The notes beneath the pieces are model-generated. The model ran no database searches, was not told where the DNA came from, and saw only the letters and a program-made list of their open reading frames with translations. The translations under genes were made by a program, and so were the position numbers. A DNA stretch of 64,000 nt from Naegleria gruberi (Eukaryota): the NCBI GenBank assembly GCA_000004985.1, contig GG738891.1; one strand, given 5' to 3'. Shown here one piece after another: positions 40,782-63,246 of the stretch (position 1 is its first letter; the number at the start of each line of letters is the position of its first letter).

Positions 40782-42914
40782 ATGTATGAGCTGAAGAACT
40801 TGAATGAGACTCAAAGCACCATCACATCTACTCAACTGAGCTCAACTGTTTCCAGTATTTCATCTGTTAGCTCTACTATTGGATACCTAGATTCTTCTAC
40901 TCGATCAACTGTTGTAGAATATTTTCTGGTTACATTACAAAAAGCCGATTTGAATAATGTTCAATTATCAACTGAAGATTTTCAAACAAGTTTATCTTCA
41001 CTTTCCTCCATTGAAAATCAATTTATTTCATCTGTAGAGAGGAGATTAACTGTCACCAGAAAATTTACTAAAATCATTAATATTTACAATGTGTTAACTC
41101 AAATGAAATCTAAAAACTTGATAGAAGATTCATCACCAATTAAGATAATTGGAAAGGTCTATAAATCGTATTCCAATTATATCAAGAGTTCAACAGTACA
41201 AGATTTAATATTTGATGATGAAACAATTATGCAGTCAAATGGATTGCCATCATCCAGCATTGTAACAGTTAAAAGTTATTACAATGAATTAGTTTCAAGT
41301 GATTTCAAGTATTCAAAAGTTTTAGAGTTTACCCTCTACGATGTGAATACCAACCATGCAATTGAGAATCTAAATGTAAATTCACAATTTTTTATTCCAT
41401 TCACTTTAAAAAGATCATATGTTTCAAGCAATTGTAAATTTCAAAGCTACTCAGGAGAATTCATACAAAACTATTGTACGACATTTACAGACAATTCTGG
41501 TTTCCTATCACTTAATGTGTCCAGAACTGGTGTTTATCTATTGGAATATCAACAAGTTGCAGAGATTACACCTCTTCCACCAACAGCAAGTACAAGTCAA
41601 CAAACTGTCAAATTGTCCACAACCAGCAGTGACCCTTTAATTATTGGATTATCTGTAGGATTACCTGTCGCTTCCTTGTTTGTCGTTAGTATTGTTATAA
41701 TCATAGGTTTAATTATTATTTTGAGGAAGAATAGAAATTCCAAATCATTAGTTGAAGAAAGTCAAAATGAAAGAAATTACTTTGATAAATTGAAATCTCA
41801 AAAGGAAATGGAAATACCCACCATAGATATTGAATTGAAAGATAATGCCGATTTTATTGAAATTGAGGAATCTTGGTCACATAATGAAGGTCCATTATTG
41901 ATTCCATCAGATGAGATCTCAATTGTTTCAAAGCTAGGAAGTGGAGGGTTTGGAAAGGTGTACAAAAGTGAATATACACCAAGAGGAAAGGAAAAGAGAT
42001 TTGTTGCAATTAAGAGTATAAACGATGAAGACTCGATATTGTCTAACTCTACTTCAAATCCTTCCTCTTCATCAAGTCAAACCATTTCAACTGAAGCTCT
42101 GCTGATGTGTTCACTAGATCATGAAAATATTGTGAAATGTTTTGGAGTTTCTATAAAGGATGGCATTCAATTTATTGTAATGGAATATGTGGATGGTGGA
42201 AGCTTACAAGATTTGATACATGAATTGAAAAATGGAAGAAAAGTAATGGATTTGGATGAAAAAATCAAAATATTGTTACATATTTGTCATGGAATTAATT
42301 ATTTACATAATTTACCAAGACCAATAGTTCACAGAGATTTGAAACCTGGAAATTGTTTATTAACCAGATCGACAATGTGTTGTAAATTATGTGATTTTGG
42401 CTTATCAAAAGCATTTTCAAATTCATCAATTAACTCAATGACAAACAACATTGGGACTTTATTCTATATGAGTAACGAAATTATTGAAGGAATGGTCAAG
42501 AAGGAATTCGCCAAAGCCATTGATTGTTACAGCTTCTCAATTTTGATGTGGGAACTGCTGTTTGAAGAGAATCCTTACATTTACAAGAATATAGGAAAGT
42601 TATTCTTTGAAAGAGATTTTGAGGGTTCAGGATATTCTGGCTTGGTTGGTTTTAATATATTGCCAAGAGTTATGAGTGGGTTGAGGCCAGTGATTCCCTT
42701 CCAAAACGATAGACAATTATGTAAATTGTGGACCCAAAAGTTTATTCATTCCAAATTTACAAATGAGAGTATTGTTGAATGTTTATTGAAGATGAAGGAC
42801 TTGATGGAATCTTGTTGGCAACCAACTCCAGAAAAAAGACCAAGCTTTGCATCTGTGATTAAAACACTGAACGACATTAGAAATACGTTGCGTTTGAACA
42901 AACAGTGTGTTTAA
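40782..42914 (+). CDS. Receptor-like protein kinase (TKL-like Ser/Thr kinase): S/T-rich extracellular region, one TM helix (LIIGLSVGLPVASLFVVSIVIIIGLIIIL), and an intracellular kinase domain. About 710 aa; an upstream signal-peptide exon is not found.
   Basis: Kinase motifs are LGSGGFGKVYKSEY, VAIKSI, HRDLKPGNCLL and DFGLSKA. The track start at 40740 is TTG; the first ATG in frame is at 40782. No obvious signal peptide, so a short 5' exon may be missing. Confidence 0.7.
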   Translation: MYELKNLNETQSTITSTQLSSTVSSISSVSSTIGYLDSSTRSTVVEYFLVTLQKADLNNVQLSTEDFQTSLSSLSSIENQFISSVERRLTVTRKFTKIINIYNVLTQMKSKNLIEDSSPIKIIGKVYKSYSNYIKSSTVQDLIFDDETIMQSNGLPSSSIVTVKSYYNELVSSDFKYSKVLEFTLYDVNTNHAIENLNVNSQFFIPFTLKRSYVSSNCKFQSYSGEFIQNYCTTFTDNSGFLSLNVSRTGVYLLEYQQVAEITPLPPTASTSQQTVKLSTTSSDPLIIGLSVGLPVASLFVVSIVIIIGLIIILRKNRNSKSLVEESQNERNYFDKLKSQKEMEIPTIDIELKDNADFIEIEESWSHNEGPLLIPSDEISIVSKLGSGGFGKVYKSEYTPRGKEKRFVAIKSINDEDSILSNSTSNPSSSSSQTISTEALLMCSLDHENIVKCFGVSIKDGIQFIVMEYVDGGSLQDLIHELKNGRKVMDLDEKIKILLHICHGINYLHNLPRPIVHRDLKPGNCLLTRSTMCCKLCDFGLSKAFSNSSINSMTNNIGTLFYMSNEIIEGMVKKEFAKAIDCYSFSILMWELLFEENPYIYKNIGKLFFERDFEGSGYSGLVGFNILPRVMSGLRPVIPFQNDRQLCKLWTQKFIHSKFTNESIVECLLKMKDLMESCWQPTPEKRPSFASVIKTLNDIRNTLRLNKQCV

Positions 42915-43111: not shown

Positions 43112-43894
43112 ATGTCTCAACACCTCTCCACAAACATTGACGAATTCATAAAGAAAGGCTACAAGGGATGGTATTATAGCAAAATCCCATCATTCCGTCC
43201 TGGACGTTCCATCCTCTCCACCTATGAATTATTTTCATTCCGAGAATTGCCTTTTATTCATTTCCTTGATGAGGATTATAAAGCCTTTGTTGAAAGATAT
43301 AATTTGGAGGAGAATGAGACACAAGATGATGATGAAATAGTTCTTTCTTATAGTAGTAATAGTAGAACAAACACTTCTTTGGAATTAATACCTCCAAAGA
43401 TTGTTCATCTTTATGAAAATAGCAATATAATTGCAAAATATTTAAAATCGGAAATTACTACGTTTTATGTATCGGAAGGAAGTGTTGTTCGTTTGAAACG
43501 ATATGAGGATTTGGATTTGTATATTCTTCCCTTTTTTAAAGATGCTATTGGTGTGATGAATTGGTATGCCCTGTATGATTTGAAGAAGAGTAGTGGAGTG
43601 GGAAGTTTTATGCATCCCGTGGTTGTTTCTGGTTTTCCAGAGGATTTATCAATGCTGGATTTGAATGATTTAGATTTGGTTTCAATGAATGTTCATGAAT
43701 TTATTGGAAGAATGCTTTTGGAAGGTCATTTGGCAAGAGAAATGAAACGTGTTAATGGAGATGTTCAAGCTCTTGTGAATCCATTGTGTCGTGAATATGT
43801 AGAACATTATTTGAGAATTCAGAAAAGAAGGAGTGAAACCATATTTATTGGAAATGAGCATGTTGGCAATTTTAGTGATGTGAGCTTTGCTTAA
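43112..43894 (+). CDS. Hypothetical 260-aa protein
   Basis: ATG-initiated ORF with coding-like composition. Its 3' end overlaps the convergent neighbour by 23 nt. Confidence 0.45.
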   Translation: MSQHLSTNIDEFIKKGYKGWYYSKIPSFRPGRSILSTYELFSFRELPFIHFLDEDYKAFVERYNLEENETQDDDEIVLSYSSNSRTNTSLELIPPKIVHLYENSNIIAKYLKSEITTFYVSEGSVVRLKRYEDLDLYILPFFKDAIGVMNWYALYDLKKSSGVGSFMHPVVVSGFPEDLSMLDLNDLDLVSMNVHEFIGRMLLEGHLAREMKRVNGDVQALVNPLCREYVEHYLRIQKRRSETIFIGNEHVGNFSDVSFA

Positions 43895-44669
43895 TTTTGA
43901 ACATGGTATCAGTTCTGAGGATGTACTTGACGCCATCTGTTACTTTTTCTCCACAATGTAACATATCCATATCTTCCTGTGGAAAAACAATACAAGTTCC
44001 AGATCTCTCAATAACTCTGGCAGTCTCCTTTCTATGATATTGCTCAAAGAAAATTGTCGATCCACCCTTAAAATCACCCTCCAATTGTGAATTCAAATAG
44101 ATCATAAATGTCAATGCACTCTTGGTTCTATTACTTCTATTGGAATAGGTACCATCAGTGTGAGTTCCAAAATAGTGACCTGGCTTATATTTACACAATC
44201 TCCAACGATTATTCAATGAATGCAATGTCATATCCATTCCATGATGATTCAATTCTTGTGGCAAGTGATCCTTCACTCTATTCCATATCACTTGTGTCAA
44301 CGCATCATCATCAACCATCAATCTATCATTGAATCTATCATTATAAGCATAACAATACGAATCAGCATCTTCATATCCAAGTTTTTCACTCAATTCAATC
44401 AATAATTTACATTCCTCCTTCAACAAGACATTTTCTAAAATCAAAACTGGTTTTCCATTCTTTTCAACCTTCTCCAAATGTCTCACATTGATCTTTTCCC
44501 TAACAATCTCATCATTCTTTGCCAACAAATCACCAATTGACAATTTTATACTTTTCATTGAATCGGCAATTTTTTCATCAAAGCCATCAGCAACCACCTC
44601 CGAGGAGAGAACTTGCTGTGAGAGAAGAGGTGTATACTGAGAGGATTGCCACTTTTGAGACATGAACAT
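43872..44669 (-). CDS. 2-oxoglutarate/Fe(II)-dependent oxygenase, prolyl-4-hydroxylase-like, 265 aa
   Basis: H-x-D...H facial triad in GTHTDG and HCGEKVTDGVKYILRTDTMF (distal His and Arg), plus the GGSTIFF strand motif of the P4H/2OG-FeII_Oxy_3 fold. Confidence 0.7.
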   Translation of the reverse strand: MFMSQKWQSSQYTPLLSQQVLSSEVVADGFDEKIADSMKSIKLSIGDLLAKNDEIVREKINVRHLEKVEKNGKPVLILENVLLKEECKLLIELSEKLGYEDADSYCYAYNDRFNDRLMVDDDALTQVIWNRVKDHLPQELNHHGMDMTLHSLNNRWRLCKYKPGHYFGTHTDGTYSNRSNRTKSALTFMIYLNSQLEGDFKGGSTIFFEQYHRKETARVIERSGTCIVFPQEDMDMLHCGEKVTDGVKYILRTDTMFKIKQSSHH

Positions 44670-44956: not shown

Positions 44957-47194
44957 ATGATGATGAACAGAAATAATTCAATTCTTTCCTACAGTTCGGA
45001 ATTTCATCATTATTTCGAATCAAGAGTGGGGAGTCTGCTCACTCTCGATCAAACCTTCCCAGCCAAATATTTAGCAAGTGATCAATATTTCGATGATAAG
45101 CCAACTCATTCCTTGATTACTTTACAAATAATTCCGAATTTAATTAATAATAGTAATGATGATGACGATGATCTGGTTGGTGATCAAAGAGGAGATGAAT
45201 TTACCATCATGATGAAGAATCGAGTGGAAAAGTACATTCAAGCAAGTAGGAAATTTAAGAATAACATTCCCTTGATGAAGTGCTTTGAAGAGGTGACTGA
45301 TGGTGGATCTACATTGACTTTACATTTGTGTTCCTTTCCATTCAATTTGAAAATTCAATCGGAAATGAATAACATGAGGATGATTAAGGAAGTGTTTCAT
45401 AGGAGAGAAGATTTGATAACTTTGGAAAAGTATTTGGAAAGTAACTATTCACTGGAGAATGATTATGGAATGTTGATTGGAATTTTACAGGGTTTGGCAA
45501 AATCTCTATTTGAGTTGCACTTCATTGGTAAATTGAGCCATAATAGTATTATACCAAGGAATGTGGTAATTTCAAGGAAGAATTCAACAGCTCTGATTGG
45601 ATTGCCATCGTTTGGATTGGATGATGTGGTTGGAACGTTGAATGATGAGCATTTGACCTATTTTTCACCTCAAGTTTTGGAAAGATTTGAAAATGGAGAG
45701 AAAACAGTCTTTTCCAATAGTAATGATGTATACATGTTTGGTACATTGATTATTAGGATATTATTGGGCGAGGAGTTTGATGCCAAGTATTTGGACACTG
45801 AACGAATGGATGGGGAATTGAAGGATTTGAAATCAAGAATATTGAAACAGCTCACTAATAATATGCCAATGAGGGAAATCTATGAAAATATAGCAGATAT
45901 GGCATTCAGATGTATTGACAGAAATGAATCTAAACGACCTTCAATAGCTGAAGCGTTTCAACTATTGGAGAAACAAGAACCAATAATCATCCTGCCATCT
46001 TCCGAGTCTGCACTTATCTCAAATTCCAGTTCTGAAACCCCAACTTTTACCGTATCCTCACGTTCATTCAATACCTCAAAATTTTCGCTATTTTCTAACC
46101 TTTTTGGAGTCAAGAAAAAGGACCGAGTGCCATCTTTAAGAAATGATGTGGTAAATGATGTATGTGATGACATATCAACAATTGAAAGTTTACCAATTAT
46201 TGTTCAGTGTGAAGAAAAGAAACTAGATGAAGAAGAAACAAAACCAGTGGAGAATCCAGAAGATTTGGATGAGGAAAAGAAGAAACTCTACATTATTGAT
46301 AAGAGAATTAGTGAGGGAGCTTCTGCTGTTGTGTTCACTCTCAAGAGACCTTCCGAATGTGTCATGAAGAGATACAAGAAAGGTCACGAATCGGATTACA
46401 AGAGAGAAATTAGATGCCTACAAAAACGTCATCAGAATATTGTTACCTTAATAGACAATTATTCATTTAAGGAAGGAGAAAATTTTAATCATGTAATTAT
46501 TATGGAATATTGTGGATATGGAGATTTGTATCGATTGGTATCAAGTAGTGTACAGAAAAGTGCAATCAAACCAATTGTAAGTTTTGTAATGGAAAGTTGT
46601 TTAAATGGAAAACAACAACATTTTAAAATAGAAATTCCTAACAATGGGTATTCAATTATTTGAGGCATTGTGTCACCTCCACTCTAACCAATATGTACAT
46701 TGTGACGTTGTAAGTTTCTTAAACCTTCTTAAACATTCTAATATTCTTTTAAGAAACCTGTAAAGCTTGGCGACTTTGCATTTAGTGTGAGAAATGGAGA
46801 AAGTTCACCAGGATTGACGTTCCACTATGCACCTCCTGAGCTTCATGAAGGAAAACCAGCCATCATTGAATGTGATGTTTACAGTGCTGCTTGTTCTCTA
46901 TTCGAAGTACTTGTAAAGAAGAAGGTTAGTTTGAAAGATAAGGATTTCACACAGGTTTGGGATCAACACAATGCCAATACTAGATTCTATTCCAGGACCA
47001 TGTCTAATCCTCATGCCATTAGATTGTTCAATCTGATGAAAGAATGCTTGGAGCCTGATGCGAAAAATCGATGCTCTTCAAAGAAGGTCCTTTCTGAAAT
47101 GATAGATATTCGAAACAATTTTTGTGCAACCCTTATTCAAAAGATATTTAGAGGATTTAGAGTAAGAAAGAGCCTTAAAAGAAGAATGAATTAA
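44957..47194 (+). CDS. Tandem pseudokinase-kinase protein with a C-terminal IQ motif: join(44957..46576, 46632..46709, 46754..47194), 712 aa
   Basis: Exon 1 holds a degenerate kinase-like domain and then a canonical kinase N-lobe (IIDKRISEGASAVVFTLKRP...VMKRYKK...IIMEYCGYGDLY). ATT|GTAAGT donor at 46577 and a 55-nt intron. A 78-nt micro-exon encodes KFLTMGIQLFEALCHLHSNQYVHCDV (catalytic loop H-C-D). GTT|GTAAGT donor at 46710 and a 44-nt intron. Exon 3 begins KPVKLGDFAFS (DFG equivalent), then APPEL, then IQKIFRGFRVRK (IQ). All exons are in phase 0. Confidence 0.7.
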
Positions 47195-47463
47195 CCTTCC
47201 TCTGTAAATATGCCAACGATTAAAAATTAATTGTAAAACTACAGCTAAAAAGTTTTTTTGATAGAGTATTTTGTGTGACCATTTTTATTAATTTTTTAAT
47301 ACTAGAAAGTGGAATCCCAAAACAGACGAATTACCATTATTTTGGTGGATGAATCCCAAATCAAGTTCTGGACCAAAAACAAGAATTTCACACCACTTAA
47401 GGTCCATCTTTTCACGATTACTAATTTAGAAAGCCAACCATATTTCAAAAACTTGCATATTTA

Positions 47464-48669
47464 TTATGAAAGAGAAACAATACTTTGTGAAGTGATAATG
47501 TCACGAGTGGAGGGCACGTTATCGTAGCTCTTTGAAACCATTCGTAATATTAACTCAACCAAATCCCTTCTGTGTTGAATGCATTTAGATAGACGTGAGT
47601 ATAGAGCTTCGTTAATGAGAGTTTCCTCTTCGTTTTGTTCGTAAAGTTGGGAAAGAATCAATTCCTTGTCCCTGCTGCAAATTTGATAGAGTGTAACACC
47701 CAAATGATAAACATCCATTATTAATTTCTTGTCATTGAATGAGTTGTATGCCTTTGGTAAGGTGAATCTCTTCTCAGAGTTGGATGCGAAGGATTGTTCT
47801 TTCCATCCAAAGTCAGACAATACTACTTCAATCAAGTCGTAATCATCATTGAATGTCTTGATAAAGATATTGTGTGGTCTGATATTACCGTGATGGAGAC
47901 CCTTATTATCATTCAGGAATTGTATAGCTTGTGTAATTTGTGAAATGACTTGAGCAATCATTTCGTCTGAGAGTTGAACATCTTCTTCGTCCATGAGTGA
48001 TTGTAAATTACCCATTTCAATGTATTCCATCTCCACGGCAACTGTTTTTTCACCAACAATAGAAGAATCATAAATATGTACAAAAAAGTCTTGATAATTT
48101 GGCAGGTGCATAATTCGCTCGAAATGGACATTCAATAATTGTGCTTCTTTAACCGTAGAGCACTGAATTAGTCTCAACACTTTGTATTGGGATTCGTGTG
48201 GGTGTTTGATAAGATAGAGGCATGAATTGCCCTTTCTGCTCAGCAATTCAACACTTTCGAATTTTGCAAAGTAATGTTCTTGCACTTCCCAGCATGATTC
48301 AAATTCAAGTTTAGACACAAATCTTGGGGATGCAACTCGTGGTTGTTCAGATATCGACTTGGTAAGCAGTGAAGAACCTCTTCTTCTCCTTCCTCCTGCC
48401 ATTGACATTCTATTCGAAACCATTCTTGCCTCCTCTTCATGTTGCATAATAGTAGCAAAGTTACAATCGAATAATGGATTAAACTGAGTAGTCCATTCCA
48501 AATTATTCTCATCATAAATTTCCTCATTGCTACAATAACATGTCGACGACGATAAACTCGACGACGAAGCAACATCTGGTGATAATTCCTTATTGATTAT
48601 TGGATTGGCTCTCACCGAGTGATGATTAGCAGCAATCTTGACCATCAACTTTTTCATCAAGTTAGTCAT
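47464..48669 (-). CDS. Protein-kinase-like protein (probable pseudokinase: HGN replaces HRD in LHHGNIRPHNIF; DFG is retained), 401 aa
   Basis: Kinase-fold motifs VAVEMEYIEMGNLQSL and LSDFGW are present, but the catalytic Asp is absent. Convergent with the preceding kinase gene. Confidence 0.6.
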   Translation of the reverse strand: MTNLMKKLMVKIAANHHSVRANPIINKELSPDVASSSSLSSSTCYCSNEEIYDENNLEWTTQFNPLFDCNFATIMQHEEEARMVSNRMSMAGGRRRRGSSLLTKSISEQPRVASPRFVSKLEFESCWEVQEHYFAKFESVELLSRKGNSCLYLIKHPHESQYKVLRLIQCSTVKEAQLLNVHFERIMHLPNYQDFFVHIYDSSIVGEKTVAVEMEYIEMGNLQSLMDEEDVQLSDEMIAQVISQITQAIQFLNDNKGLHHGNIRPHNIFIKTFNDDYDLIEVVLSDFGWKEQSFASNSEKRFTLPKAYNSFNDKKLIMDVYHLGVTLYQICSRDKELILSQLYEQNEEETLINEALYSRLSKCIQHRRDLVELILRMVSKSYDNVPSTRDIITSQSIVSLS

Positions 48670-49713
48670 TTTCTCTTACTAGTTATTTGTTGTTTATCTA
48701 CAATATTAATCTTTCAAAGCCTTTTTCTTATATGAACTCCGATGTAGTGTAAGTATCAATACAAAAAATATGAAACTCTAAAAGGTCGTTTTGTTGTGTG
48801 TTGTTTTTTTTTCTTCAAATTCTAAGAATGCTAAGCATTTTTCGCTCCTTAAACAGCAAAAGAGCGGCAATGTTGCTGAATGGAAGGATACTCGTCCAGG
48901 GCTTGTAGCCGTTCGTGGAGGTTTGCCATCTCACGAGAGAAATCGAGAGCAGGAAAAAATAAAAATATCGAAAGAGTTGGGAAAATGTCAAATGTTTGAA
49001 AAGTTTTGTTGCTATTTATAAAGATTGAATGACACATACCTTTGGTGGAGTTGGGGTGAACATTTGAGGAACAGAGTGCATTTGCAGAATTTTTGCTCAA
49101 GTAAATAATTGAAGTCAAATGACAAGTGACTGTTATTAATGTTGTAGGTCAATCAATTACGCACATTAAATTATGTATTGAATACTTCAATAATTGATGA
49201 GTAAGGATTGTTGTATGCAATTTTCAAGTCTTTTCATTGAGGTTGCAAATTGTTGAATAAACTCCTAAACTATTCGAAACTTTCCAGATTTAAATTTAGA
49301 TATGCGGTATTACATGCTTTATGTCCTTCTTCCAATAAACAGCTCCGGTGTCTTGGAATCAGAGCTGATATTTTGTGGAGTTAATTCCTGAATGTTTCTA
49401 AACAATTCGAACCTGTAGTCGAATTTGATTTATACACAACATGAATTCGAATAACTTTTAAGGTACACAAATTAGTTGAGCCAAAGGAAGGATGAACATG
49501 GGTACCCACTTGAACAATGTAACAGAGTTCCATCAAAATTTCCGAAGAAGAGCGAATCAACTAATGTAACCATACTTGGATGATTCAATTATTTGTTTCA
49601 TTCAATTCGTGTACTAATGAATATTTTTTCAATGTATTGAGGTAGAAAAATAGAGAACTCAATGGCAGATAGAAATTGAATACAAAATGTATTAACAGGA
49701 TTAATGAGGAATT

Positions 49714-50975
49714 CTATTCACAATTCATATCAAAGAATATATCTGAAAATGCACTTCTCCTTTCCCTCAAATTGCCAAAGAAATAGTCAAAATCTTTTGT
49801 AGAATTAATACGTCTTACGGCCATAAAATATAACTCATCAGAACCAAGCAACACAATAGTGTCATCATTTAGCTCATAAACTACCTTGCCATGAAATGTC
49901 GTGTATTGACGTTCTAATTCTTCTGGAATTGTGTAATTGATGAGCATTCTCTCATTCTTATCATATTCATATATCTTGAAGACATCGTTATCACCGTAAA
50001 GAATGAGAAAACTTTCACTTGTTAGATAAGGTTTGTTGGCTCCTCTCAAACAAATGCTCCTTGAGTATGAAGAATAACCATTTGTTTTAAGTAATTCAGA
50101 AACGGGTGTGCTCCACTCTCTAGTATTGAAATTAAAATCATGTAGGGCTGTTATATAACCAGTTGAATCATATCCACCAAATATTGTAATTCCATTTTCA
50201 GATATATAGGTATTAGGAGTAATAACTGTTAAGGTTGGGACTTTATGTGAGTATTTCGGCTGTGTCCATTCTCTAGTTTCCAAATCCAACTCATGGAAAT
50301 CATTCAAGTACGTTCCACAATACCCTCCATATACATAAAACTTTCCTCTACTCGAATATACAGCCGAACATCCACATCTTTTGCAAGGGTTTCCCTTTGT
50401 TACAATATTGGTCCATACTTTAGTTTGCAAATCAAAAGTCCACAAGTCATCCAAATGACCAATCGTATTAACATGTCCTCCATATAAATATATCAATTGA
50501 TGTTGTTTATCATATGAAATACATGGATATTCTCTAGCACATGGTTGGTCAGCTCCATTCGGAATAATTTCCTTCCAGACCAATCCTTCCTCTACTTTAA
50601 ATCTTGGATTTGATGGCAATTCCAAAATTACAATCTTATTATTGTGCGATCTTGAATTTGTCTCAGTTCCTTATCAAAATCAAATAGTAAATTATTCAAT
50701 CACGTGAATGATTTCCAAATCAACATATTAAATATATATTAATATAATCATCGCGATCAAAATTATTACACAATATTATAATTATTATTATTATTACTAA
50801 TATTAAAATACAAACCTCCAAACATGAACAAGATCGGAGAATGTGTCAATACATTCTCTGATCCCAATAACAATGAATGAAAATTTTCGGTCGGTTGCAA
50901 ATTGTGTTTATAATGGTGATACCAACGAATGGGTTCTTCGGTGGTGTGAATGTTTGTATTGTTTTCCTTCTTCAT
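49714..50975 (-). CDS. Kelch-repeat beta-propeller protein, two exons: join(complement(50816..50975), complement(49714..50669)), 371 aa
   Basis: The exon 2 frame has no ATG (the track start is TTG) and is preceded by an in-frame TAA. The upstream ORF (ATG 50975) ends MFGG|GTTTGT. A 146-nt AT-rich intron ends at acceptor ataAG 50671-50670. The splice restores Gly and continues ...KIVILELPSNPRF...LIYLYGGH. There are multiple Kelch blades (YLYGG, YVYGGY, TIFGGYD). Confidence 0.6.
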
Positions 50976-52125: not shown

Positions 52126-54353
52126 ATGAATGAAAGTAAATCCAAGCCAGTTTCAAAGCTCGGAGATTTCTTGAAGAAACAATTAGAAACTGATCAATTA
52201 CAATTACAATTGATGAAAATTCTCTATTCGAATTGTTATAAAATTCACATGGAGAAGAAACTCCAGAAGAAAGCTCCACAAAAAAGCAATATAATAATTA
52301 AAATGACTGAACAGGAGAGAGGACTAAAAGATTTCTTGGAGATTGTGGACGAATGTACAGAGAATCAAGCTTGGTTTCCGCAACAAACGGTGAGCAAATA
52401 TTTGGATATTGGTGAGGAAGGTTGGACGATAATGTCTCACTGGATGTTGCCAATATTTAAAGTTTCTAATAGCGGATTGGAACTGGGATGTGAAACTTGT
52501 GGGAAATTACAATGTATTTCACAAGCTTTCGAACAATTTTTGACGAAACGAAACGAATTCGAAATGGACAATCAGACAGCTTTGCATCCATTCGAAAAAT
52601 TCGTGGATATTTGGTCTCAACCTAAATTACGTTCCATGCACAATACAATTTACAAATTGGCAGATCATCCATCTGCAAATGCATTTACGAAAGGTTTCTC
52701 CAACTGTACAATGACCTATTTCGTATTTTCTCGTGAATTACAAGGAGCAGATCCAAAGAAACATCAAACTTTGGTTGCTGTTCTAGAAGCTCTCACATTG
52801 AATAGTTCAATTTATTCGATTGATGTTTCAAACTTACTTCTCATTCACGATGCTGCAGTTAAGGCACTTTGTAACATGATTAGAAAGAAGAAGAATCTGA
52901 AACGAATTGTAATTTCTGATTTGAGTTTGGGGAAATCTTCATATAGTTTGGATATTATTAATGCTGTTTTGGAAGCTCCACTCCTACAAGAAATTTCCAT
53001 TTATATTTATGAAGAATTGGATAGTAATTTCAGATTTTTGGAAGGGGCTCCTGCAAGTTTAGTTTACAAATTGGGAAATCATCCTTTCAAAAATTTTACA
53101 TTTTCATTGCTTAATTTCAATTTTCCAATTCAGTCCTTGTCAATTTTAGAAGGAATGCTCAAAAATAGAAATTTGAAATATATAGAATTTAAAGTAGAGA
53201 ATAATGATGAATATAAGAAATATCAATATATTGACTATGTAAACAAGATGGGTAATTTGATTGGATCAATTGACGAATTTCACTTTCAAACATGTCACAT
53301 TCCAAATATTTCCCTCAATCAAAATCTGCACTTGCTGAAAAAATGTACAAATCCAAAGAAAAGACAGTATTTTATAGAAAATGACTTGTTGAAGGCCATC
53401 ATTAATGATGAATTGTATTCAAGTGTTGGTTCAGAATTCAATTTGAACTCTGATTTAATGCGAGAGTTTGGATTTTCACATGTTTCACATTTCTGTAAAT
53501 TTATAACCAAACTAGAACTTGATTTGAAAACTGATTTGAATGAAAATGAGTGGGAATTGATTTGTAGCGCAGTAATAGAATCTGAAACTTTGGAAGAATT
53601 GAGAGTGCGTAATGTGAATGTTTTACAAAAGAATAATCATTCAATTTTTCAAAATTGAAACACAATAATTCAAAACTAACTTGTTTGATTTTACAAAATG
53701 CTTACCAACCTGAAATAATTTCAGGCCCAGAATTGATTGCAGATGCAGCCAGAACTTTCCTTAATCATAACCACTTCCCAGAATTTAAAAAGTTTATCAT
53801 ACGAGGAACGGAATTTGAAATCAATTTCAAATGTATGGAAATAATTGTTGAATGTATCAACAAACATCCTTATGGATTGACTAGTTTGGAGCTTGGAGAG
53901 AGTTCGATCAAAGATCCAAATTGTACTGACCTATTACTGAAAGCCCTTTCACACAATATGACAATTGAAACAGTGGCTTTGTATGGTGCTGCGTTGAACA
54001 ATGTTGATATGTTTTCTGATTTTCTTATCACCAACAAGAGTGTGAAAACACTCAAACTTGATTATTCAGGACTCGACGAATATATTCCACAAGATTTGAG
54101 CATTGAGGATGATTTTGGAGCAAGCTTATTGAAATTCTTTGGATCTTTACAGTTGAATTGGAGAATTACAGCCATCGATTGGTTTTTAGAATATTATTAC
54201 AACACTTTCATTTTTGGAAGTGGAAATTATGTGGGTGAAAGATTTCTCGCCCAAAGAATAATGAAAAGGAATAAGAAACAAGTAGAAATTAACAAGTTAA
54301 TGGATCCAATTAGAAAAAAGATGCAATTCTCGGATGTGAAAATAATTCAGTAA
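52126..54353 (+). CDS. RNI-like leucine-rich-repeat protein. Two ORFs (52126..53658 and 53655..54353) are separated by a +1 frame change. Either one gene with an intron (candidate donor C|GTAATG about 53611, acceptor tttcAG about 53729) or a frameshift, or two adjacent LRR genes.
   Basis: Repeats of the ribonuclease-inhibitor type (L..L.L..N.I.......L...L..N..L) occur in both ORFs (e.g. LEALTLNSSIYSIDVSNLLLIHDAAVKALCNMI and LTSLELGESSIKDPNCTDLLLKALSHNMTIETVALYGAAL). The second ORF's track start is TTG. Confidence 0.5.
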
Positions 54354-54386
54354 TATTTCAAATTAAATTACAATAAATTACAAAGT

Positions 54387-55871
54387 TTAATGGGAAATGT
54401 AAGCAGCAGCTTCAAGGAATTGATCAAAAGAGAAGGTTGCTTGTCCAGTACTTTGCTTATCAAATAATTGGAATGAGTTTCTACAAATTCCAATAAAGAT
54501 AGTGAAATCAATATATTCAGCAAAGGAGAATGTACCTTGTTTGTCCTTATCAAAATTCTTGAACAATCTGTCAAGAGCAGATGGAGAAACTTGAACTCCT
54601 GAATATTGAATTGCTGTCTTGACTTCGTTCAAATCCAAAGTTCCACTTCTATTAGTATCAGTCTTTTCAAAAGCATTCTTCATGTTCATTAAATAATAGT
54701 GCAATTGTTCAAATTCATGGAAACCAATTTGACCAGAATTATCACGATCGAACATTTTGATCATCTTTTGAGTAACACTCTTATCAAAGACCATACCACC
54801 CTTTGACAAAACAGTTGATAATTCTTCAGCTGAGACTTGTCCGGACTTGTCAAGATCAACAGCATCGAACCAAGCCTTGAGTTGAGGATTTGGTTGAGTT
54901 TGTTGAATTGGCATGAATTGATTTTGACCTGGTTGTGGTTGTTGTCCAGTTTGACCTGGTTGTCCATATTGTGGTGGAACTTGACCTGGTTGTCCCACTG
55001 GTTGTTGACCAAATTGTGGTGGTTGTTGGCCAAATTGTGGTGGAACTTGACCTGGTTGTCCGAGTTGTGGATTTTGAGGTGGAACAGATGGTTGGCCATA
55101 TTGTGGGTTTTGACCTGGTTGTGGTTGTTGACCATATTGTGGTGGAACTTGACCTGGTTGTCCGAGCTGTGGATTTTGTGGTGGAACAGATGGTTGTCCA
55201 AATTGAGGATTAGTTGATGGAGGAACTTGTCCCATTGGTGGTTGTTGACCTGTTGGTGGAACTTGACCTGGTTGACCATATTGTGGATTTTGTGAAGGAA
55301 CAGATGGTTGACCATATTGTGGTGGTTGTTGTCCAGTTTGACCAGGTTGAGGTGGTTGTTGACCAAATTGTGGGGAAACTTGACCAGTTTGACCATATTG
55401 AGGTGGAACTTGTCCTGGTTGTCCCATTGGTGGTTGTTGTCCGTATTGAGATTGATTCATTGGAGGAACAGATGGTTGACCATATTGTGGATTTTGAGAT
55501 GGTGGAATTGGTGAGCTACTAACTGGTGGAGTAGTTTGACGAGGAACTTGTCCCATAGGTGGTTGTTGACCATATTGTTGAGGAACAGATGGCTGACCAT
55601 ATTGTGATTGTCCCATTGGAGGTTGTTGGCCGTATGGTGATTGTCCCATCGGTGGTTGTTGTCCATATTGACCATATTGTGATTGTCCCATTGGTGGTTG
55701 TTGACCGTATGGATGTTGTGGTTGGCCGTATGGAAGTTGTTGACCATATTGACCTCCGTATGGCGGTTGTTGTTGTTGACCATATTGACCGTATGGTTGT
55801 TGTGAAGAAGGAGGTTGTTGACCGTAGCCTTGAACTTGTGGTGGATGTTGACCGTATGGAGGTTGACTCAT
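54387..55871 (-). CDS. Penta-EF-hand (PEF) Ca2+-binding protein, ALG-2/peflin-like, 494 aa. The N-terminal roughly 325 aa is a P/Q/G/Y-rich tandem-repeat domain and the C-terminal roughly 170 aa is the PEF domain.
   Basis: The C-terminus has EF loops DLDKSGQVSAEEL, DRDNSGQIGFHEF, DTNRSGTLDLNEV and DKDKQGTFSFAEY, plus an odd fifth hand. The N-terminus has dozens of QYGQQPPMGQ / QYGQPSVPPQNP repeats. The ATG at 55871 was verified. Confidence 0.85.
   Translation of the reverse strand: MSQPPYGQHPPQVQGYGQQPPSSQQPYGQYGQQQQPPYGGQYGQQLPYGQPQHPYGQQPPMGQSQYGQYGQQPPMGQSPYGQQPPMGQSQYGQPSVPQQYGQQPPMGQVPRQTTPPVSSSPIPPSQNPQYGQPSVPPMNQSQYGQQPPMGQPGQVPPQYGQTGQVSPQFGQQPPQPGQTGQQPPQYGQPSVPSQNPQYGQPGQVPPTGQQPPMGQVPPSTNPQFGQPSVPPQNPQLGQPGQVPPQYGQQPQPGQNPQYGQPSVPPQNPQLGQPGQVPPQFGQQPPQFGQQPVGQPGQVPPQYGQPGQTGQQPQPGQNQFMPIQQTQPNPQLKAWFDAVDLDKSGQVSAEELSTVLSKGGMVFDKSVTQKMIKMFDRDNSGQIGFHEFEQLHYYLMNMKNAFEKTDTNRSGTLDLNEVKTAIQYSGVQVSPSALDRLFKNFDKDKQGTFSFAEYIDFTIFIGICRNSFQLFDKQSTGQATFSFDQFLEAAAYISH
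54895..55860. repeat. Coding tandem repeat (degenerate 30-45-nt units, ccatattgtgg(a/t)tgttg(a/t)cc... on the plus strand) encoding the PQ-rich arm of the PEF protein
   Basis: The repetitive nucleotide pattern is visible by eye. It generates the many overlapping alternative-frame ORFs in the track (54761..55396, 54837..55217, 55214..55522 and others). Confidence 0.7.
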
Positions 55872-56286
55872 TTTTTATTATTTTTATATTTGATGATCAA
55901 AAATGAACGCTCCCACACAACATTTTGTAAATGGGTTACACCACCAACTTGGTGACAAATCAAAATATTGACATCCAATAGAGAGATGAATACCTCACGT
56001 TGTCAACAATCGTGTGTTTAAATATTTATTAGATTTCTTTTGAGGAGTAATAATTGTGGAGGAGAGGTTGTAACATTTTTCGAGAGGAGGCCATGTTGTG
56101 CTGTACAAAGTATTTGGTGTTTTCGGAATCTTGTTCTGCTTTCCAGTGGGTGAGGTTCAATTCTGATGAACATTGATGAACCAGATGATTCACAGAATTG
56201 CTCAATAACTTTTGATTAGGTGTGTATATTACAAGTTGTCTCTTGAATTGATTTTCCTCATCACTGTAGGCACACATCACATAGAG

Positions 56287-59105: not shown

Positions 59106-62100
59106 TTATTGAATGTTACAAATTTGAGATTGGTTCTTTTCTCCCTTTGATTTCTTTCCACTCTTTGGAGGAGGAACACTATCGTCCAAAGCATTAGAAA
59201 CTTCCTTAACAGCAGTCTTTGTCAAAGATCTAGCCTTTCTCATCATGGCATCGAAATCATTGTCAGAATCAGAATCACTGCTGCTTCCTGAATCACTGTC
59301 TCCAACAAGATCATCAAATTCGGAGAGAATTTCCCTAGCTTTTTGCTTAGAACTGATAGCAGCAATATCTTGTTCAAGTTTCTTGATATTCTTCTTGAGT
59401 TTTCTGTAATACTTTGAACCGACATTGGCCTTACCAGTCTTCTTAACTCTTGAACGCAAAGATTCATTTTCAGCCAAAGCAATGTTAAGATCAACAATCA
59501 AGTTTGTCTTTTCGCTGGTTAATTGTTGATTAACTTGCTCCAAAGTTGTAATCTTTTCCTTCAAAACTGATGGATCAACTACAGCAGCTTCAACATTAGC
59601 TTCAACAGTCTTCAATGAAAGGAATGGATCAGCAGAGTTATCAACATAATTTCCATTCATTATAGCCAAGTGGAAGCTTCTCAATTGATTCAATCTGGTT
59701 TCAAACATATCACGAGTCCATGTTTCAGAGTGACCAGTTTCAAGATCAGTAACTTCAACTTCAATTTGAGAACCGACAAGTTTAAGATCAATAGCAATAC
59801 TTCTCTTAAGTTCAGCTACCATGATAGAAGCTTCTTGAATCCAAGGAACTAATTGAGAAACTGAATCGGTACTAGCAGAGGAGGCAATAACAGTTGTCTT
59901 TACAGCTTTTTCTATGATTATTTGGGACTTTTCAGCCATTTCTTGTTGAAGTCTATTTTCCATATCGAACAACTTCATAGACATTTCCAATTCCTTTCTT
60001 TGGAAGTCTCTTTCCTTTTCTTCCTTTTCTAATTCAATCAATCTCATTTGTTCTAACATTGCCTTAGTGTCCTTTTCGGCATTAAGAAGAAGTTCACTTT
60101 GCTTAAGAGCTAAGGATCTTGCCATTTCTTGTTGTTGTCTTTCCATTTCAACCTTTTGTCTTTCGATTTCTTCTTGTTGTGCCATCTTTTCTTCCAAATA
60201 TTGTTGCTGGAGGAGAGTAAACTTTTCTTCTGCCTTTGTGGATGCTGAAGCAGCAACTGTATTTGATTTTTGGATTTGAGTCTTGAAAATAGCTCTTACA
60301 GCTGTCATCTTGAGTCTGTTGTCACTTAACTTTCTTTCATAATCTTCTCTTTCCTTTTCCAATTGCTTTTGATTTTCTTGCTTGGCAGAAACGAGTTGAT
60401 TTCTGAGTTGATTGACTTCTTCTTCACTAGCTCCAGATTCAATCTTAGCAAGGAGCTCTCTTTCCTTAGCTTGGAAAGAACCAACCAATTCCTTTTCTCT
60501 CAACATGAACTTTTCCTTTTCTCTTTGCATGATGTCTTCATGTTCCTTATTCTTTTTTGTCATTTCTTCTTCAACCTTTGAGAGTTGTTCTTTATACTTT
60601 CTAGCTTCTTCTTCAGCTTGTTTTGATTTTTCTAACTTTTCCTTGAGAACAGAAACTTCAGAGTTGATTTGGACTCTGATTCTTTCTTCAGATTGAGCAA
60701 ACATTTCATTTTGAGCCTTGATAACACCGTCAATTCTTTCCTTTTCCTTCTTCAATTCTTCTTCATATTTGGAAACGAGAGCACCATTGTGTTGGTTCTC
60801 AGAAATCAACTTTTGAATTTCAAGTTCTCTTTGTAATTTTTCATCAACTAAAAGTTGCTCCTTCTTTTGCAAAAAGTCCTTTTCTTCGTTGATCTTTTTT
60901 TGATATTCAGCTTCCTTTTCCAAGATCTTTTGTTGCAAAGCTTGATTTTCCTTTTCTAAATCTTCCTTATGCTTCTTTCCAATGTTAATTTCAGCCATAA
61001 GCTTGGATTCAAGTTCCATGATTTGCTTTTGGTATGATGAAGAAATATTCATCTTGGAAGCTTCCAACTCTCTTTGGTACTGCAAAACTTGTTCTTCATT
61101 CTTTTTCTTTTCAGATTCCAACATTTGTTCAATTTGCTTTCTTCTTTGTTCGTCATTCTTGTTTTGCAACAATTCAGCTTGCAACAATTTTTCCTTAGTA
61201 GCATATTCAGCTCTGAGTAAATCTTCTCTCTTCTTGGCATTTTCCATTTCTTGTTGAATGAGATCCTTTTGGGCTTGTCTTTGCTTTTCAATTTCAGACT
61301 TGACACTGTTGATGGTTTCTTGCATTTCTGTTTCTCTCTTCTTATGTTCTTGAACAAGTTGGTTAGTCTTTTCATCAATCAAATTCTTACTGAATTCATC
61401 CCATGCAAGTTTCCAATCAGAGTTGTTAACAGCGCCTTCACTAGGGTTATTGTATTGATAGATCAATCTGGAACCGATAACAAGTCTGTCTCCATTCTTG
61501 ATCTTTGTCTTTTCCTTAATTTCTACACCGTTAACATAAACTTTGGCATTTTCAGATGGAGTGATAAAACCGGCAGAAATTGTGGCATGTGAGTCTAAAA
61601 TACCAGCACCTTGAATTCTGACAGTGTTTCCTTCAGCAGCACCAATATTTGTTGGTTCTTGAACATAATAGTTAAGTTTTCCACTCAACAATGGATCTTC
61701 ATTAAGGTTACTAATATGCAACTTGTTCTTATCGAAATCAAGTTCAACATTCATTTCCTTGAAAAATTCTTCTCTCTCCTTTGCCATTTCTTCAGTTCTT
61801 TTAATCTTTTCTTCGGTGGTCATTTGCATTTCAGTGATAAGCTTTTGGGAGGCATCTAATTGCTCCTTCAACTTGTCATACTCTGCTTGGGCAATTCCTC
61901 CAGGAACTCCAGTAGAACCCTCAGTATTTTCTCCAGCAGGAACAATACCCTTACCAGCAAGTTGATTCTTCAATCTTTCAACTTCAGCTCTCAATTGACT
62001 GATAATCTTGGCAGAAGGATCTTCGTTAACAATAGCCTTGTTGACAATTTGTTTAGCTCTGTCAGCATATCTGAGGGTTGAGAGAGATTCATCATAGTTG

Positions 62101-63246
62101 ACATCAGCAGGAGAAATAGCAGCAATCATAATAGTTCTAGAGTTACCACCCAAAGATTCCTTAAGAAGGTGAGTTAACTTGGAATCTCTGTATGGAATGA
62201 AGGCAGTAGAGTTTTTTCCTGTGCACTTATCAGCAAGAGCCTTAATAACATTACCCAAAGAGGTCAATGAAAGGTTAATGTTAATACCTTCTTGAGCTCT
62301 AGCACCAGTAGCACCAGTTCTGGCCATTCTTTCGGAACCTGCCAAGTCGACAAGATTGATGGAGGAAACCTTTTGAACTTTTTGCTTTGTTTCAGGATGT
62401 TGAACGGTTTGCTTTACATATAAAATAAAAACGGTGTGAGCTCTAGATGATGTCTTATTCATGGCAGTAGCACCAGTAGTTCTAGCATCTTCACCTTGCT
62501 TCAACAACTTTAAAATTTGATCCTCTCCTTGAGCAACGTGCTTTGACAAACCCTCTATGATTTTTTAAATATTCCTCAATAAGATCCAACAATAAATTCT
62601 TCACTTACCAATATAGACACCTGTTTGTGGATTTTCTCTGATTTTTAGACCACCTGTTGGATTGTTCTTTGGATTGAAAAGATCCTTAATTTCTTCGTTA
62701 TAAATTTCCAACATGGAGGCTTCAACACCATATTCAATAGGAACTGTGTTTTGAGACTTTGATTCTTCAATCTTTTGGAAAATACGCTTAGAAGCCATAG
62801 TGACTAAACCTTCATCCTTTCCTGGATAACCAATCATACTGTATGATTTACCAGAACCAGTTTGACCACTATTATTATTGTTGTTTAAATACAAATTATT
62901 CTCAACAATTTAACACTTACTAGGCAAACATGGAGGTGTTGTATCCTTGCCAACAGTTAGCAAGCATAGATTCTCCCATATCATTCCACAGAACTTTGTT
63001 ATCAGCAAAGTTGGCATCAGCGCTATTAAAGCTCCAATAAGAATAGTCAAAAGTAAATTTGTTTTCCTTTCCTGAGGCAGGATCGCTTTTCCCAAGTCAA
63101 TACAACCACAATTTCCTAAAAATTACTTACACCAAGATGGTCTGTGGACCATTCATTTGTACAATACATTTTGATTTACCTTCAATTTCGTAATCCTTGA
63201 ATGGTCTTACTCTCACAGCAACCTTAACTGAATCAGCTGATGACAT
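59106..63246 (-). CDS. Kinesin-3 (Unc104/KIF1-like) motor protein with FHA domain and long coiled coil: join(complement(63131..63246), complement(62921..63085), complement(62609..62868), complement(59106..62554)), 1329 aa
   Basis: Motor motifs are [39 protein letters not shown] (P-loop, spanning intron 2), SSRAH (switch I), DLAGSE (switch II) and [10 protein letters not shown]. The FHA-like segment is [20 protein letters not shown]...[22 protein letters not shown]. Introns are 45, 52 and 54 nt, all GTAAGT...AG, and the phases check out (116+165+260+3449 = 3990 nt). The track ORFs 62601..62894 and 62910..63095 are read-through or wrong-frame artefacts. Confidence 0.9.

Follow-up and report, generated by a model that had tools for sequence, protein, structure and literature searches.

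We present an analysis of a 64,000-nucleotide stretch of the Naegleria gruberi genome (contig GG738891.1 of assembly GCA_000004985.1, hereafter the window), focusing on the gene NAEGRDRAFT_71527 (44957..47194, + strand; hereafter gene 1), its convergent neighbor NAEGRDRAFT_51637, and a transmembrane kinase gene located further upstream. The predicted product of gene 1 is an N-terminal pseudokinase, followed by a NEK-like kinase and then by a C-terminal IQ motif, and the second of these domains carries, in this genome, a 30-nucleotide (nt) in-frame deletion in its catalytic loop. The coordinates of all features are collected in Table 1.

Gene Model, Domain Architecture, and Family of NAEGRDRAFT_71527

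The open reading frame (ORF) of gene 1 opens at 44957, and the start of the public model lies two Met codons further on, at the third ATG (44963). When the three exons are joined across two phase 0 introns, both of the form GTAAGT...AG, the product is 100% identical to XP_002673323.1 (NAEGRDRAFT_71527) in a public protein comparison. This exact match upholds the splice model put forward in a preliminary description of the locus, which had called a 78-nt exon flanked by introns of 55 and 44 nt. The same description had placed the HCD motif on a 26-codon exon of its own, which indeed encodes KFLTMGIQLFEALCHLHSNQYVHCDV, and had assigned DFA, an APE motif (here APPE), and the IQ motif to the last exon, where all three are found.

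It had also taken the first domain to be a degenerate kinase-like domain, in agreement with our profile scans: amino acids (aa) 136–335 score 30.3 bits against Pfam Pkinase (PF00069), just below the cut-off of 31.7, and 23.8 bits against PK_Tyr_Ser-Thr (PF07714), above the cut-off of 23.1, while the corresponding N. lovaniensis domain scores 38.8 bits. A family profile of this domain built from seven sequences matches 121 PDB kinase chains with E-values below 1e-3 (the best being IRAK4, 2.9e-7), and in the alignment to IRAK4 and MKK6, PSFG falls on DFG and HNS on HRD. In an eight-sequence alignment, both catalytic Asp residues (those of HRD and DFG) are replaced by Ser in every family member. 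In kinases, the three critical motifs comprise the Lys of strand β3 and the Asp residues of HRD and DFG. A sequence-based definition, given in PMC13519141, classes as pseudokinases those domains that have lost at least one of three critical catalytic motifs. As judged from its sequence, the first domain of gene 1 is a pseudokinase, conserved as such throughout the family. Its N-lobe has no confident AlphaFold2 model because the alignment is shallow there, and the linker that separates it from the second kinase-like domain differs greatly in length among species in the orthologue alignment.

The C-terminal domain is recognized far more readily, scoring 114.1 bits against Pfam Pkinase (cut-off 31.7) over aa 447–680 and profile positions 3–259. 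AlphaFold2 models it with predicted local distance difference test (pLDDT) values of 85–97, and this model matches PDB kinases; a Foldseek search of the PDB with the full model returned generic kinase matches only. The domain keeps the β3 Lys (VMK), the αC Glu (REI), the catalytic Asp (HCD), and the Asp of DFG (DFA). All family sequences (8/8) fit the IQ consensus [ILV]QxxxRGxxx[RK]. Against the Pfam IQ model (PF00612, cut-off 20.3), the full-length protein scores 18.5 bits, which rises to 23.7 bits when the tail is scanned alone; the tails of the N. lovaniensis and N. fowleri-like orthologues score 20.0 and 14.4 bits, respectively. The motif is placed by AlphaFold2 on a long helix (residues 673–709) that continues from the C-lobe, and it is reasonable to expect that this tail may bind calmodulin.

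When 1.84 billion representative proteins were searched with the N-terminal domain using phmmer, only six had E-values below 1e-10, and each of these belongs to Naegleria or Willaertia: the query, N. fowleri FDP41_001997 and FDP41_009127, NAEGRDRAFT_45977 (the second N. gruberi member, on another scaffold), and two Willaertia magna proteins. The N. lovaniensis orthologue was found by a separate protein search. The eight aligned sequences share ELH...[ST]H[NK]SI[IL]P[RK]N and PSF[GY] in the first domain, a variable low-complexity linker, the pattern xDGASA, V[ML]K, RE, H[CS]D[VI]KPQN[IV][FL], D[FY]G, and GGTxxYxPPE in the kinase domain, and [IL][IL]QKxxRGxxxR at the C-terminus, such that the pseudokinase–kinase–IQ tandem architecture proposed earlier holds throughout the family (8/8). 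Within Naegleria the family forms two clades, gene 1 belonging to clade A. An assignment of the two Willaertia genes to clades A and B by their HCD or HSD motif was dropped, since each is the other's closest relative (54% identity). We found no mention of the four locus tags in the literature searched. Taken at the level of sequence, this appears to be an undescribed family combining a pseudokinase, a NEK-like kinase, and an IQ motif, and confined to Naegleria and Willaertia in the databases searched.

The Catalytic-Loop Deletion and the Adjoining Intron

The preliminary description considered the second kinase of gene 1 to be canonical, which does not hold for the sequence in the window. Here, HCDVKP (46698–46759) is joined straight to VKLGDFA (46760–46780), and the 10 residues QNVFLQRDGT, corresponding to the catalytic-loop Asn and to strand β7 preceding DFG, are missing. 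In an alignment of 72 kinases, the column of this Asn shows a conservation of at least 90%, and NAEGRDRAFT_71527 has a gap there; all seven other family sequences carry QN[IV][FL] at the deleted site, with orthologues reading HCDVKPQNIFLA[SK]DG[NT]LKLGDYG.

A close intact relative is a 4.2-kb MEGAHIT metagenome contig (L004; ENA ERZ929261, run ERR1078381), reached through a 99%-identical homologue of the neighbor gene and 97.4% identical to window positions 45460–48850. At the junction, the window reads AAACCT-GTAAAG (KPVK) and the relative reads AAACCT-CAAAATGTCTTTTTACAAAGAGACGGAACT-GTAAAG (KPQNVFLQRDGTVK); exon 3 of L004 thus opens AAACCT-CAAAATGTCTTTTTACAAAGAGACGGAACT-GTAAAGCTT, encoding KPQNVFLQRDGTVKLGDFAF, and its intron 2 consists of the identical 44 nt. 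The extra 30 nt are likewise present in L010, a Logan assembly made independently from the same run. N. lovaniensis, N. fowleri, W. magna, and the paralogues also possess the 10 codons. Since all outgroups have the segment, its presence is taken to be ancestral, and these alignments place the change in the window, as a precise in-frame deletion of 30 nt that immediately follows the acceptor of intron 2.

Apart from the deletion, exon 3 is 100% identical in nucleotides to that of the intact relative. The ratio of non-synonymous to synonymous differences per site (pN/pS) between the two is 0.14 overall, with 4 synonymous and 0 non-synonymous differences in the kinase part. Because the rest of the gene looks constrained in this comparison, the lesion is predicted to be very recent. 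The catalytic-loop Asn (Hanks subdomain VIb) of kinases ligates Mg2+, and β7 supplies a catalytic-spine residue under the adenine. With the Mg-binding Asn and the β7 floor of the ATP pocket lost, the N. gruberi allele is probably catalytically dead or severely impaired.

It could be argued that assembly or cloning has produced the 30-nt gap artificially, or that the gap marks only one of two alleles, in which case the organism would possess an intact, active NEK-like kinase and the term canonical would be correct. The identity of the remainder of exon 3 to the intact relative, the strong purifying selection on the gene, and the intactness of all other family members speak for such a scenario, as does the report that Naegleria is diploid with heterozygous sites (PMC9928731). 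However, the deletion is clean and in frame, has a 2-nt microhomology, and lies in unique, non-repetitive coding sequence, all of which is typical of slippage or end-joining and not of mis-assembly; the public gene model carries it as well, and our protein look-ups and metagenome scans returned no contrary sequence from the same strain. Specifically, neither an exact 32-mer scan nor a protein-guided scan of the Joint Genome Institute (JGI) metagenomes detected N. gruberi-like haplotypes, and exact protein look-ups of P0001, the 568-aa read-through ORF, the neighbor protein, and P0132 were all without match. We therefore regard an artefact or a second, intact allele as unlikely, while still deserving consideration, and favor a genuine deletion.

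A further complication is posed by intron 2, which, when read through in frame, gives HCDV-VSFLNLL-KHSNILL-RNL-stop and thereby resembles a catalytic loop. One could propose on this basis that intron 2 is not real and is instead an annotation patch over a damaged loop, with KHSNILL being a relic of KPxNILL in a frameshifted pseudogene whose 44 coding nt have turned into an intron. Exon 3 does lie in the –1 frame relative to the read-through, the probability of such a mimic arising by chance is only ~5e-4 to 1e-3, and the intron contains a 10-nt tandem repeat, TTCTTAAAC (window 46716–46735, TTCTTAAAC-C-TTCTTAAAC-A-TTCTAA). Against this, an intron occupies the position of intron 2 in N. lovaniensis, in the N. 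fowleri-like contig, and in the two W. magna genes as well, and the same 44 nt, repeat included, form intron 2 of the 97%-identical relative, where the true loop KPQNVFLQRDGT follows downstream. We thus give almost no credence to the pseudogene scenario: KHSNILL is ruled out as a relic loop by the identical intron and genuine loop in L004 and L010, and the loop-like read-through is due to chance, being supplied by the tandem repeat. We note that a single 97%-identical environmental contig was sufficient to settle the nature of this conserved look-alike.

Contig L004 itself shows two further differences. In its reverse complement, it reads TTT at window positions 47119–47120, where both the window and L010 read TTTTT, which frameshifts gene 1 just ahead of the IQ motif; it also has a synonymous G>A change at window position 47143. 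The 2-nt frameshift was considered as a feature of the lineage and rejected, as it is absent from L010, and is attributable to a second haplotype or an assembly error.

Table 1. Features of the kinase genes in the window and of the 78-nt exon in related genes (positions refer to the window unless a locus is named)
Feature	Position	Strand	Remarks
Gene 1, exon 1	44957..46576	+	Pseudokinase, linker, kinase N-lobe and part of C-lobe; from ORF and identity of spliced product
Gene 1, N-terminal pseudokinase domain	45194..45976	+	About aa 80–340
Gene 1, catalytic-loop relic SHNSIIPRN	45536–45562	+	HRD replaced by HNS, Lys by Ile; Asn kept
Gene 1, PSFG in place of DFG	45605–45616	+	N-terminal domain
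Gene 1, low-complexity linker	45989..46294	+	Predicted disordered; AlphaFold2 pLDDT <50, residues 341–431
Gene 1, NEK-like kinase domain	46295..47095	+	aa 447–680, split by two introns
Gene 1, degenerate Gly loop SEGASAVV	46310–46333	+	
Gene 1, β3 Lys (CVMKR)	46358–46372	+	
Gene 1, αC Glu (YKREIR)	46397–46414	+	
Gene 1, intron 1	46577..46631	+	55 nt, GTAAGT...TAG, phase 0
Gene 1, micro-exon (78 nt, 26 codons)	46632..46709	+	Encodes KFLTMGIQLFEALCHLHSNQYVHCDV; helix αE and start of catalytic loop with HCD Asp
Gene 1, intron 2	46710..46753	+	44 nt, GTAAGT...AAG, phase 0
Gene 1, exon 3	46754..47194	+	KP-VKLGDFA...APPE...IQ...stop; DFA within 46760–46780; YAPPE 46826–46840
Gene 1, junction of 30-nt in-frame deletion	46757..46760	+	2-nt CT microhomology; DNA alignments with L004 and L010
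Gene 1, C-terminal IQ motif ATLIQKIFRGFRVRKSLKRR	47126..47185	+	Fits [ILV]QxxxRGxxxR consensus
NAEGRDRAFT_51637, convergent neighbor	47464..48669	–	Single exon, 401-aa pseudokinase
NAEGRDRAFT_51637, β3 Lys (YLIKH)	48216–48202	–	
NAEGRDRAFT_51637, HHGNIRPHN	47895–47869	–	
NAEGRDRAFT_51637, SDFGW	47817–47803	–	
Upstream transmembrane kinase	40782..42914	+	PK_Tyr_Ser-Thr, E = 1.5e-48; not in family
Upstream kinase, hydrophobic segment	41637–41723	+	
Upstream kinase, GSGGFGKV	41937–41960	+	
Upstream kinase, VHRDLKPGN	42327–42353	+	
Upstream kinase, DFG	within 42390–42407	+	
N. lovaniensis orthologue (P0002), 78-nt exon	L001, 8676–8753		Encodes RMLRFTLQLFSALEHVHEKKYVHCDV; two 59-nt flanking introns
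N. fowleri-like contig, 78-nt exon	L002, 7829–7906		Flanking introns of 67 and 76 nt
W. magna, 78-nt exon	L011, 4342–4419		
W. magna, 78-nt exon	L012, 3015–3092		

Conserved Exon Structure and Neighboring Kinase Genes

The 78-nt, phase 0 exon recurs in three other species, where four genes have it with the same position, length, and phase (Table 1), and in all of these genes it ends in YVH[CS]D[VI]; in both W. magna homologues it ends in YVH[CS]DI and the next exon opens with KPQNIL. The position of intron 1 is also occupied in N. lovaniensis (59 nt), in the N. fowleri-like contig (67 nt), and in W. magna, and that of intron 2 is kept in all of these genes, right after HCD[VI] and right before AAACC[T/A] (KP). 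The spliced product of the N. fowleri-like locus is 1073 aa long, the length of FDP41_001997, and its exon-1 ORF falls in the FDP41_001997 cluster. Sharing of position, length, and phase to this extent is far beyond chance, and the micro-exon is, on this comparison, genuine and old.

The second N. fowleri paralogue, FDP41_009127 (L013), encodes its whole kinase domain in a single exon and lacks the micro-exon; its only intron (63 nt, L013 987–1049) separates aa 162 from aa 163 of the pseudokinase domain. The W. magna gene ABK040_003774 (L011) has four introns, the extra ones following aa 287–288 and aa 1111. As these two intron sets differ, the intron content of the family is evidently fluid. 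From the 78-nt exon shared between Naegleria and Willaertia and the single exon in L013, it follows that both kinase introns are ancestral to the two genera and were lost in the clade-B paralogue.

The length of the micro-exon is a multiple of three, both flanking introns are phase 0, and the exon is exactly 78 nt long in five genes, such that it could in principle act as an alternative-splicing switch, with in-frame skipping giving rise to an isoform without the catalytic loop, and thus to a regulated pseudokinase form. We nevertheless consider such a switch highly unlikely, as the clade-B paralogue of N. fowleri lacks both introns and dispenses with the exon structure altogether, which argues against a special regulatory role, and a constant exon length is in any case expected for the structurally rigid αE/catalytic-loop segment. 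The micro-exon is instead best described, from these gene structures, as an ordinary small, constitutive-looking, conserved exon between two old phase 0 introns.

With regard to the surrounding genes, NAEGRDRAFT_51637 scores 43.3 bits against Pfam Pkinase, and its best solved relative is NEK2 (E = 1e-7), with HGN aligned on HRD. Orthologues were found in N. lovaniensis, N. fowleri, and two environmental contigs. In the five NAEGRDRAFT_51637 orthologues, the HRD position reads HG[N/Q/H/E], the Asp being retained in none of them, and both the β3 Lys and DFGW are the same throughout. The preliminary description had noted HGN, DFG, and a missing catalytic Asp in this gene, and the absence of the Asp from all five orthologues bears this out; by sequence, NAEGRDRAFT_51637 is an independent pseudokinase conserved across the genus. 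The upstream gene had likewise been put down as a receptor-like kinase, in keeping with the hydrophobic segment that precedes its kinase domain, in which HRD and DFG are both intact; it is unrelated to the family of gene 1. As a side observation, the 90%-identity cluster of the neighbor pseudokinase (P0123) includes an unrelated 46-aa protein (P0128), which we rejected as a relative: it comes from phage-like contigs of digester metagenomes carrying YqaJ and SLT genes (L005–L009), and its grouping is a clustering artefact.

These three kinase genes, which together hold four kinase-like domains and lie within 8 kb of each other (between 40.8 and 48.7 kb), had been suggested to represent a locally expanded, partly dead family, as would arise from tandem duplication. 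Apart from this proximity, the suggestion gains from the fact that the C-terminal domain of gene 1 and the neighbor both have NEK kinases as their best solved relatives. However, only short local BLASTP matches connect the four domains (22–30% identity, no E-value better than 1e-5), the orthologues that each gene possesses in other Naegleria species are 42–50% identical to it, and the only true paralogue of gene 1, NAEGRDRAFT_45977, is on another scaffold. In N. lovaniensis, the orthologues of gene 1 and NAEGRDRAFT_51637 are on different contigs with different neighbors: we found no other kinase in the 15 kb around the gene 1 orthologue, which is surrounded by genes with NHL, START, HAMP/RGS, and ThrE domains, and gene 1 synteny is thus not conserved in the N. 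lovaniensis and N. fowleri-like loci. If the N. gruberi genome, which we take to be ~41 Mb, is assumed to hold 265 uniformly distributed kinases, ~0.5 three-kinase clusters would be expected by chance, as a rough estimate. The number of kinases is that predicted for Naegleria in PMC9928731. We find a tandem duplication hardly credible given the low identity, the paralogue on another scaffold, and the unlinked orthologues, and conclude from these sequence comparisons that the three neighboring genes are not a local duplication, their proximity presumably stemming from rearrangement or chance.

The kinase pair is flanked by a 2OG-Fe(II) oxygenase gene (43875–44669, – strand; PF13640, E = 3.6e-10) and by a Kelch-repeat protein gene (49717–50625, – strand; E = 3e-49). 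Approximately 7 kb from the IQ-bearing kinase, a 494-aa ORF (54390–55871, – strand) has EF-hand matches at ~aa 331–456 (EF-hand_7, E = 6.5e-25) and no listed Pfam match in its N-terminal ~330 residues; we saw no sign of a functional link between this ORF and the IQ kinase. In the 2-kb composition profile, 54001–56000 (guanine-cytosine (GC) content 0.39, GC skew +0.24) and 60001–62000 (adenine-thymine (AT) skew –0.31, within a 1147-aa ORF at 59106–62549, – strand) stand out, probably reflecting coding-strand bias or low-complexity coding sequence.

Interpretation and Comparison with Known Systems

Taking these observations together, we consider it likely that gene 1 represents, for N. gruberi, clade A of a Naegleria/Willaertia family composed of a pseudokinase, a linker, a NEK-like kinase, and an IQ motif, and that its local allele has suffered the deletion and is probably dead. 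Several points weigh against this reading. The deletion is seen in one assembly, the window and the public model being the same sequence, and the splicing and expression of NAEGRDRAFT_71527 are inferred. AlphaFold2 models the deleted domain with high confidence and predicts no loss of fold, although such a model is uninformative on activity. The N. gruberi lineage has DFA for DFG and GLT for GGT, and, as the intact relative shares both, kinase activity may have been unusual already before the deletion. Finally, when held against the Pfam threshold, the IQ match is weak for the full-length protein as well as for the tails of the two orthologues.

In intact family members, the C-terminal domain would be an active kinase, with calmodulin or a calmodulin-like EF-hand protein docking on the IQ helix that abuts the C-lobe and modulating the kinase, and with the pseudokinase acting as an intramolecular regulator or docking module. 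In N. gruberi, the intact paralogue NAEGRDRAFT_45977 could possibly cover the lost function. It is also conceivable, if rather improbable, that the family is an undescribed calmodulin-coupled tandem-kinase module that takes part in the Ca2+/calmodulin-dependent amoeba-to-flagellate differentiation, and that the allele of the sequenced strain is a kinase in the process of turning into a second pseudokinase, which would still be expressed as a scaffold.

From a practical perspective, surveys of the N. gruberi kinome should leave NAEGRDRAFT_71527 out of their count of active kinases, and, since the lesion is genome-specific, functional work in NEG-M may meet a null or scaffold-only protein. The intact and the 10-residue-deleted allele form a natural pair that is tractable for asking what a kinase does without its Asn and β7. 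New here are the definition of the family, the finding that the micro-exon is old and has been lost in part, and the deletion in the catalytic loop that is specific to this genome; the general understanding of kinases is unchanged by these findings.

Among known kinases, the C-terminal domain is NEK-like, by best matches only: its best solved relatives are NEK1 (E = 5e-20 with the intact form) and NEK7, many of the named nearest relatives outside the family are annotated as NEK, and the intact family loop KPQNVFLQRDGTVKLGDF closely resembles KSQNIFLTKDGTVQLGDF of NEK1. However, the identity to NEK kinases is only ~25–30%, and the family departs from them in that HRD is replaced by HCD or HSD, the Gly loop is degenerate (xDGASA), and a pseudokinase precedes the kinase. 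To our knowledge, neither such a pseudokinase at the N-terminus nor an IQ motif at the C-terminus is present in any described NEK.

The preliminary description had also called the arrangement JAK-like. This is appropriate as far as the domain order is concerned, in that a pseudokinase (JH2) precedes a kinase (JH1) in one chain, and autoregulation by the pseudokinase is a plausible analogy. The likeness does not extend further: Pfam finds only Pkinase/PK_Tyr_Ser-Thr and IQ in gene 1, and no FERM or SH2 domain, the two kinase-like domains are separated by a long disordered linker and followed by an IQ motif, and the kinase is closest to the NEK Ser/Thr kinases and is not a tyrosine kinase. With neither FERM nor SH2 and with a kinase of another type, gene 1 is, as predicted from its domains, not a JAK, and its arrangement would have arisen independently.

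Two kinase folds in one chain, often with one of them inactive, are similarly seen in GCN2, the plant tandem kinases (WTK1/Yr15), RSK/MSK, and obscurin/SPEG, from all of which gene 1 differs in accessory domains, domain order, or kinase group, with no sequence kinship beyond the kinase fold. We know of no C-terminal IQ motif in any of these proteins. Tandem kinases and pseudokinases are discussed in PMC13519141, PMC13581431, and PMC7957886.

Finally, the predicted adjacency of a calmodulin-binding helix to the kinase fold in gene 1 recalls both the CaMK/MLCK kinases and Legionella SidJ. The CaMKs carry a basic amphipathic autoinhibitory segment instead of an IQ motif. SidJ has a protein kinase-like fold and was crystallized with calmodulin, and an IQ motif is discussed in the same paper (PMC6858067). 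SidJ is a bacterial glutamylase and unrelated to gene 1 in sequence, and it is a precedent for an IQ-regulated kinase fold by way of analogy only. Thus, the component kinds found in gene 1 are already known from other systems, and it is the combination of a pseudokinase, a NEK-like kinase, and an IQ motif that is new.

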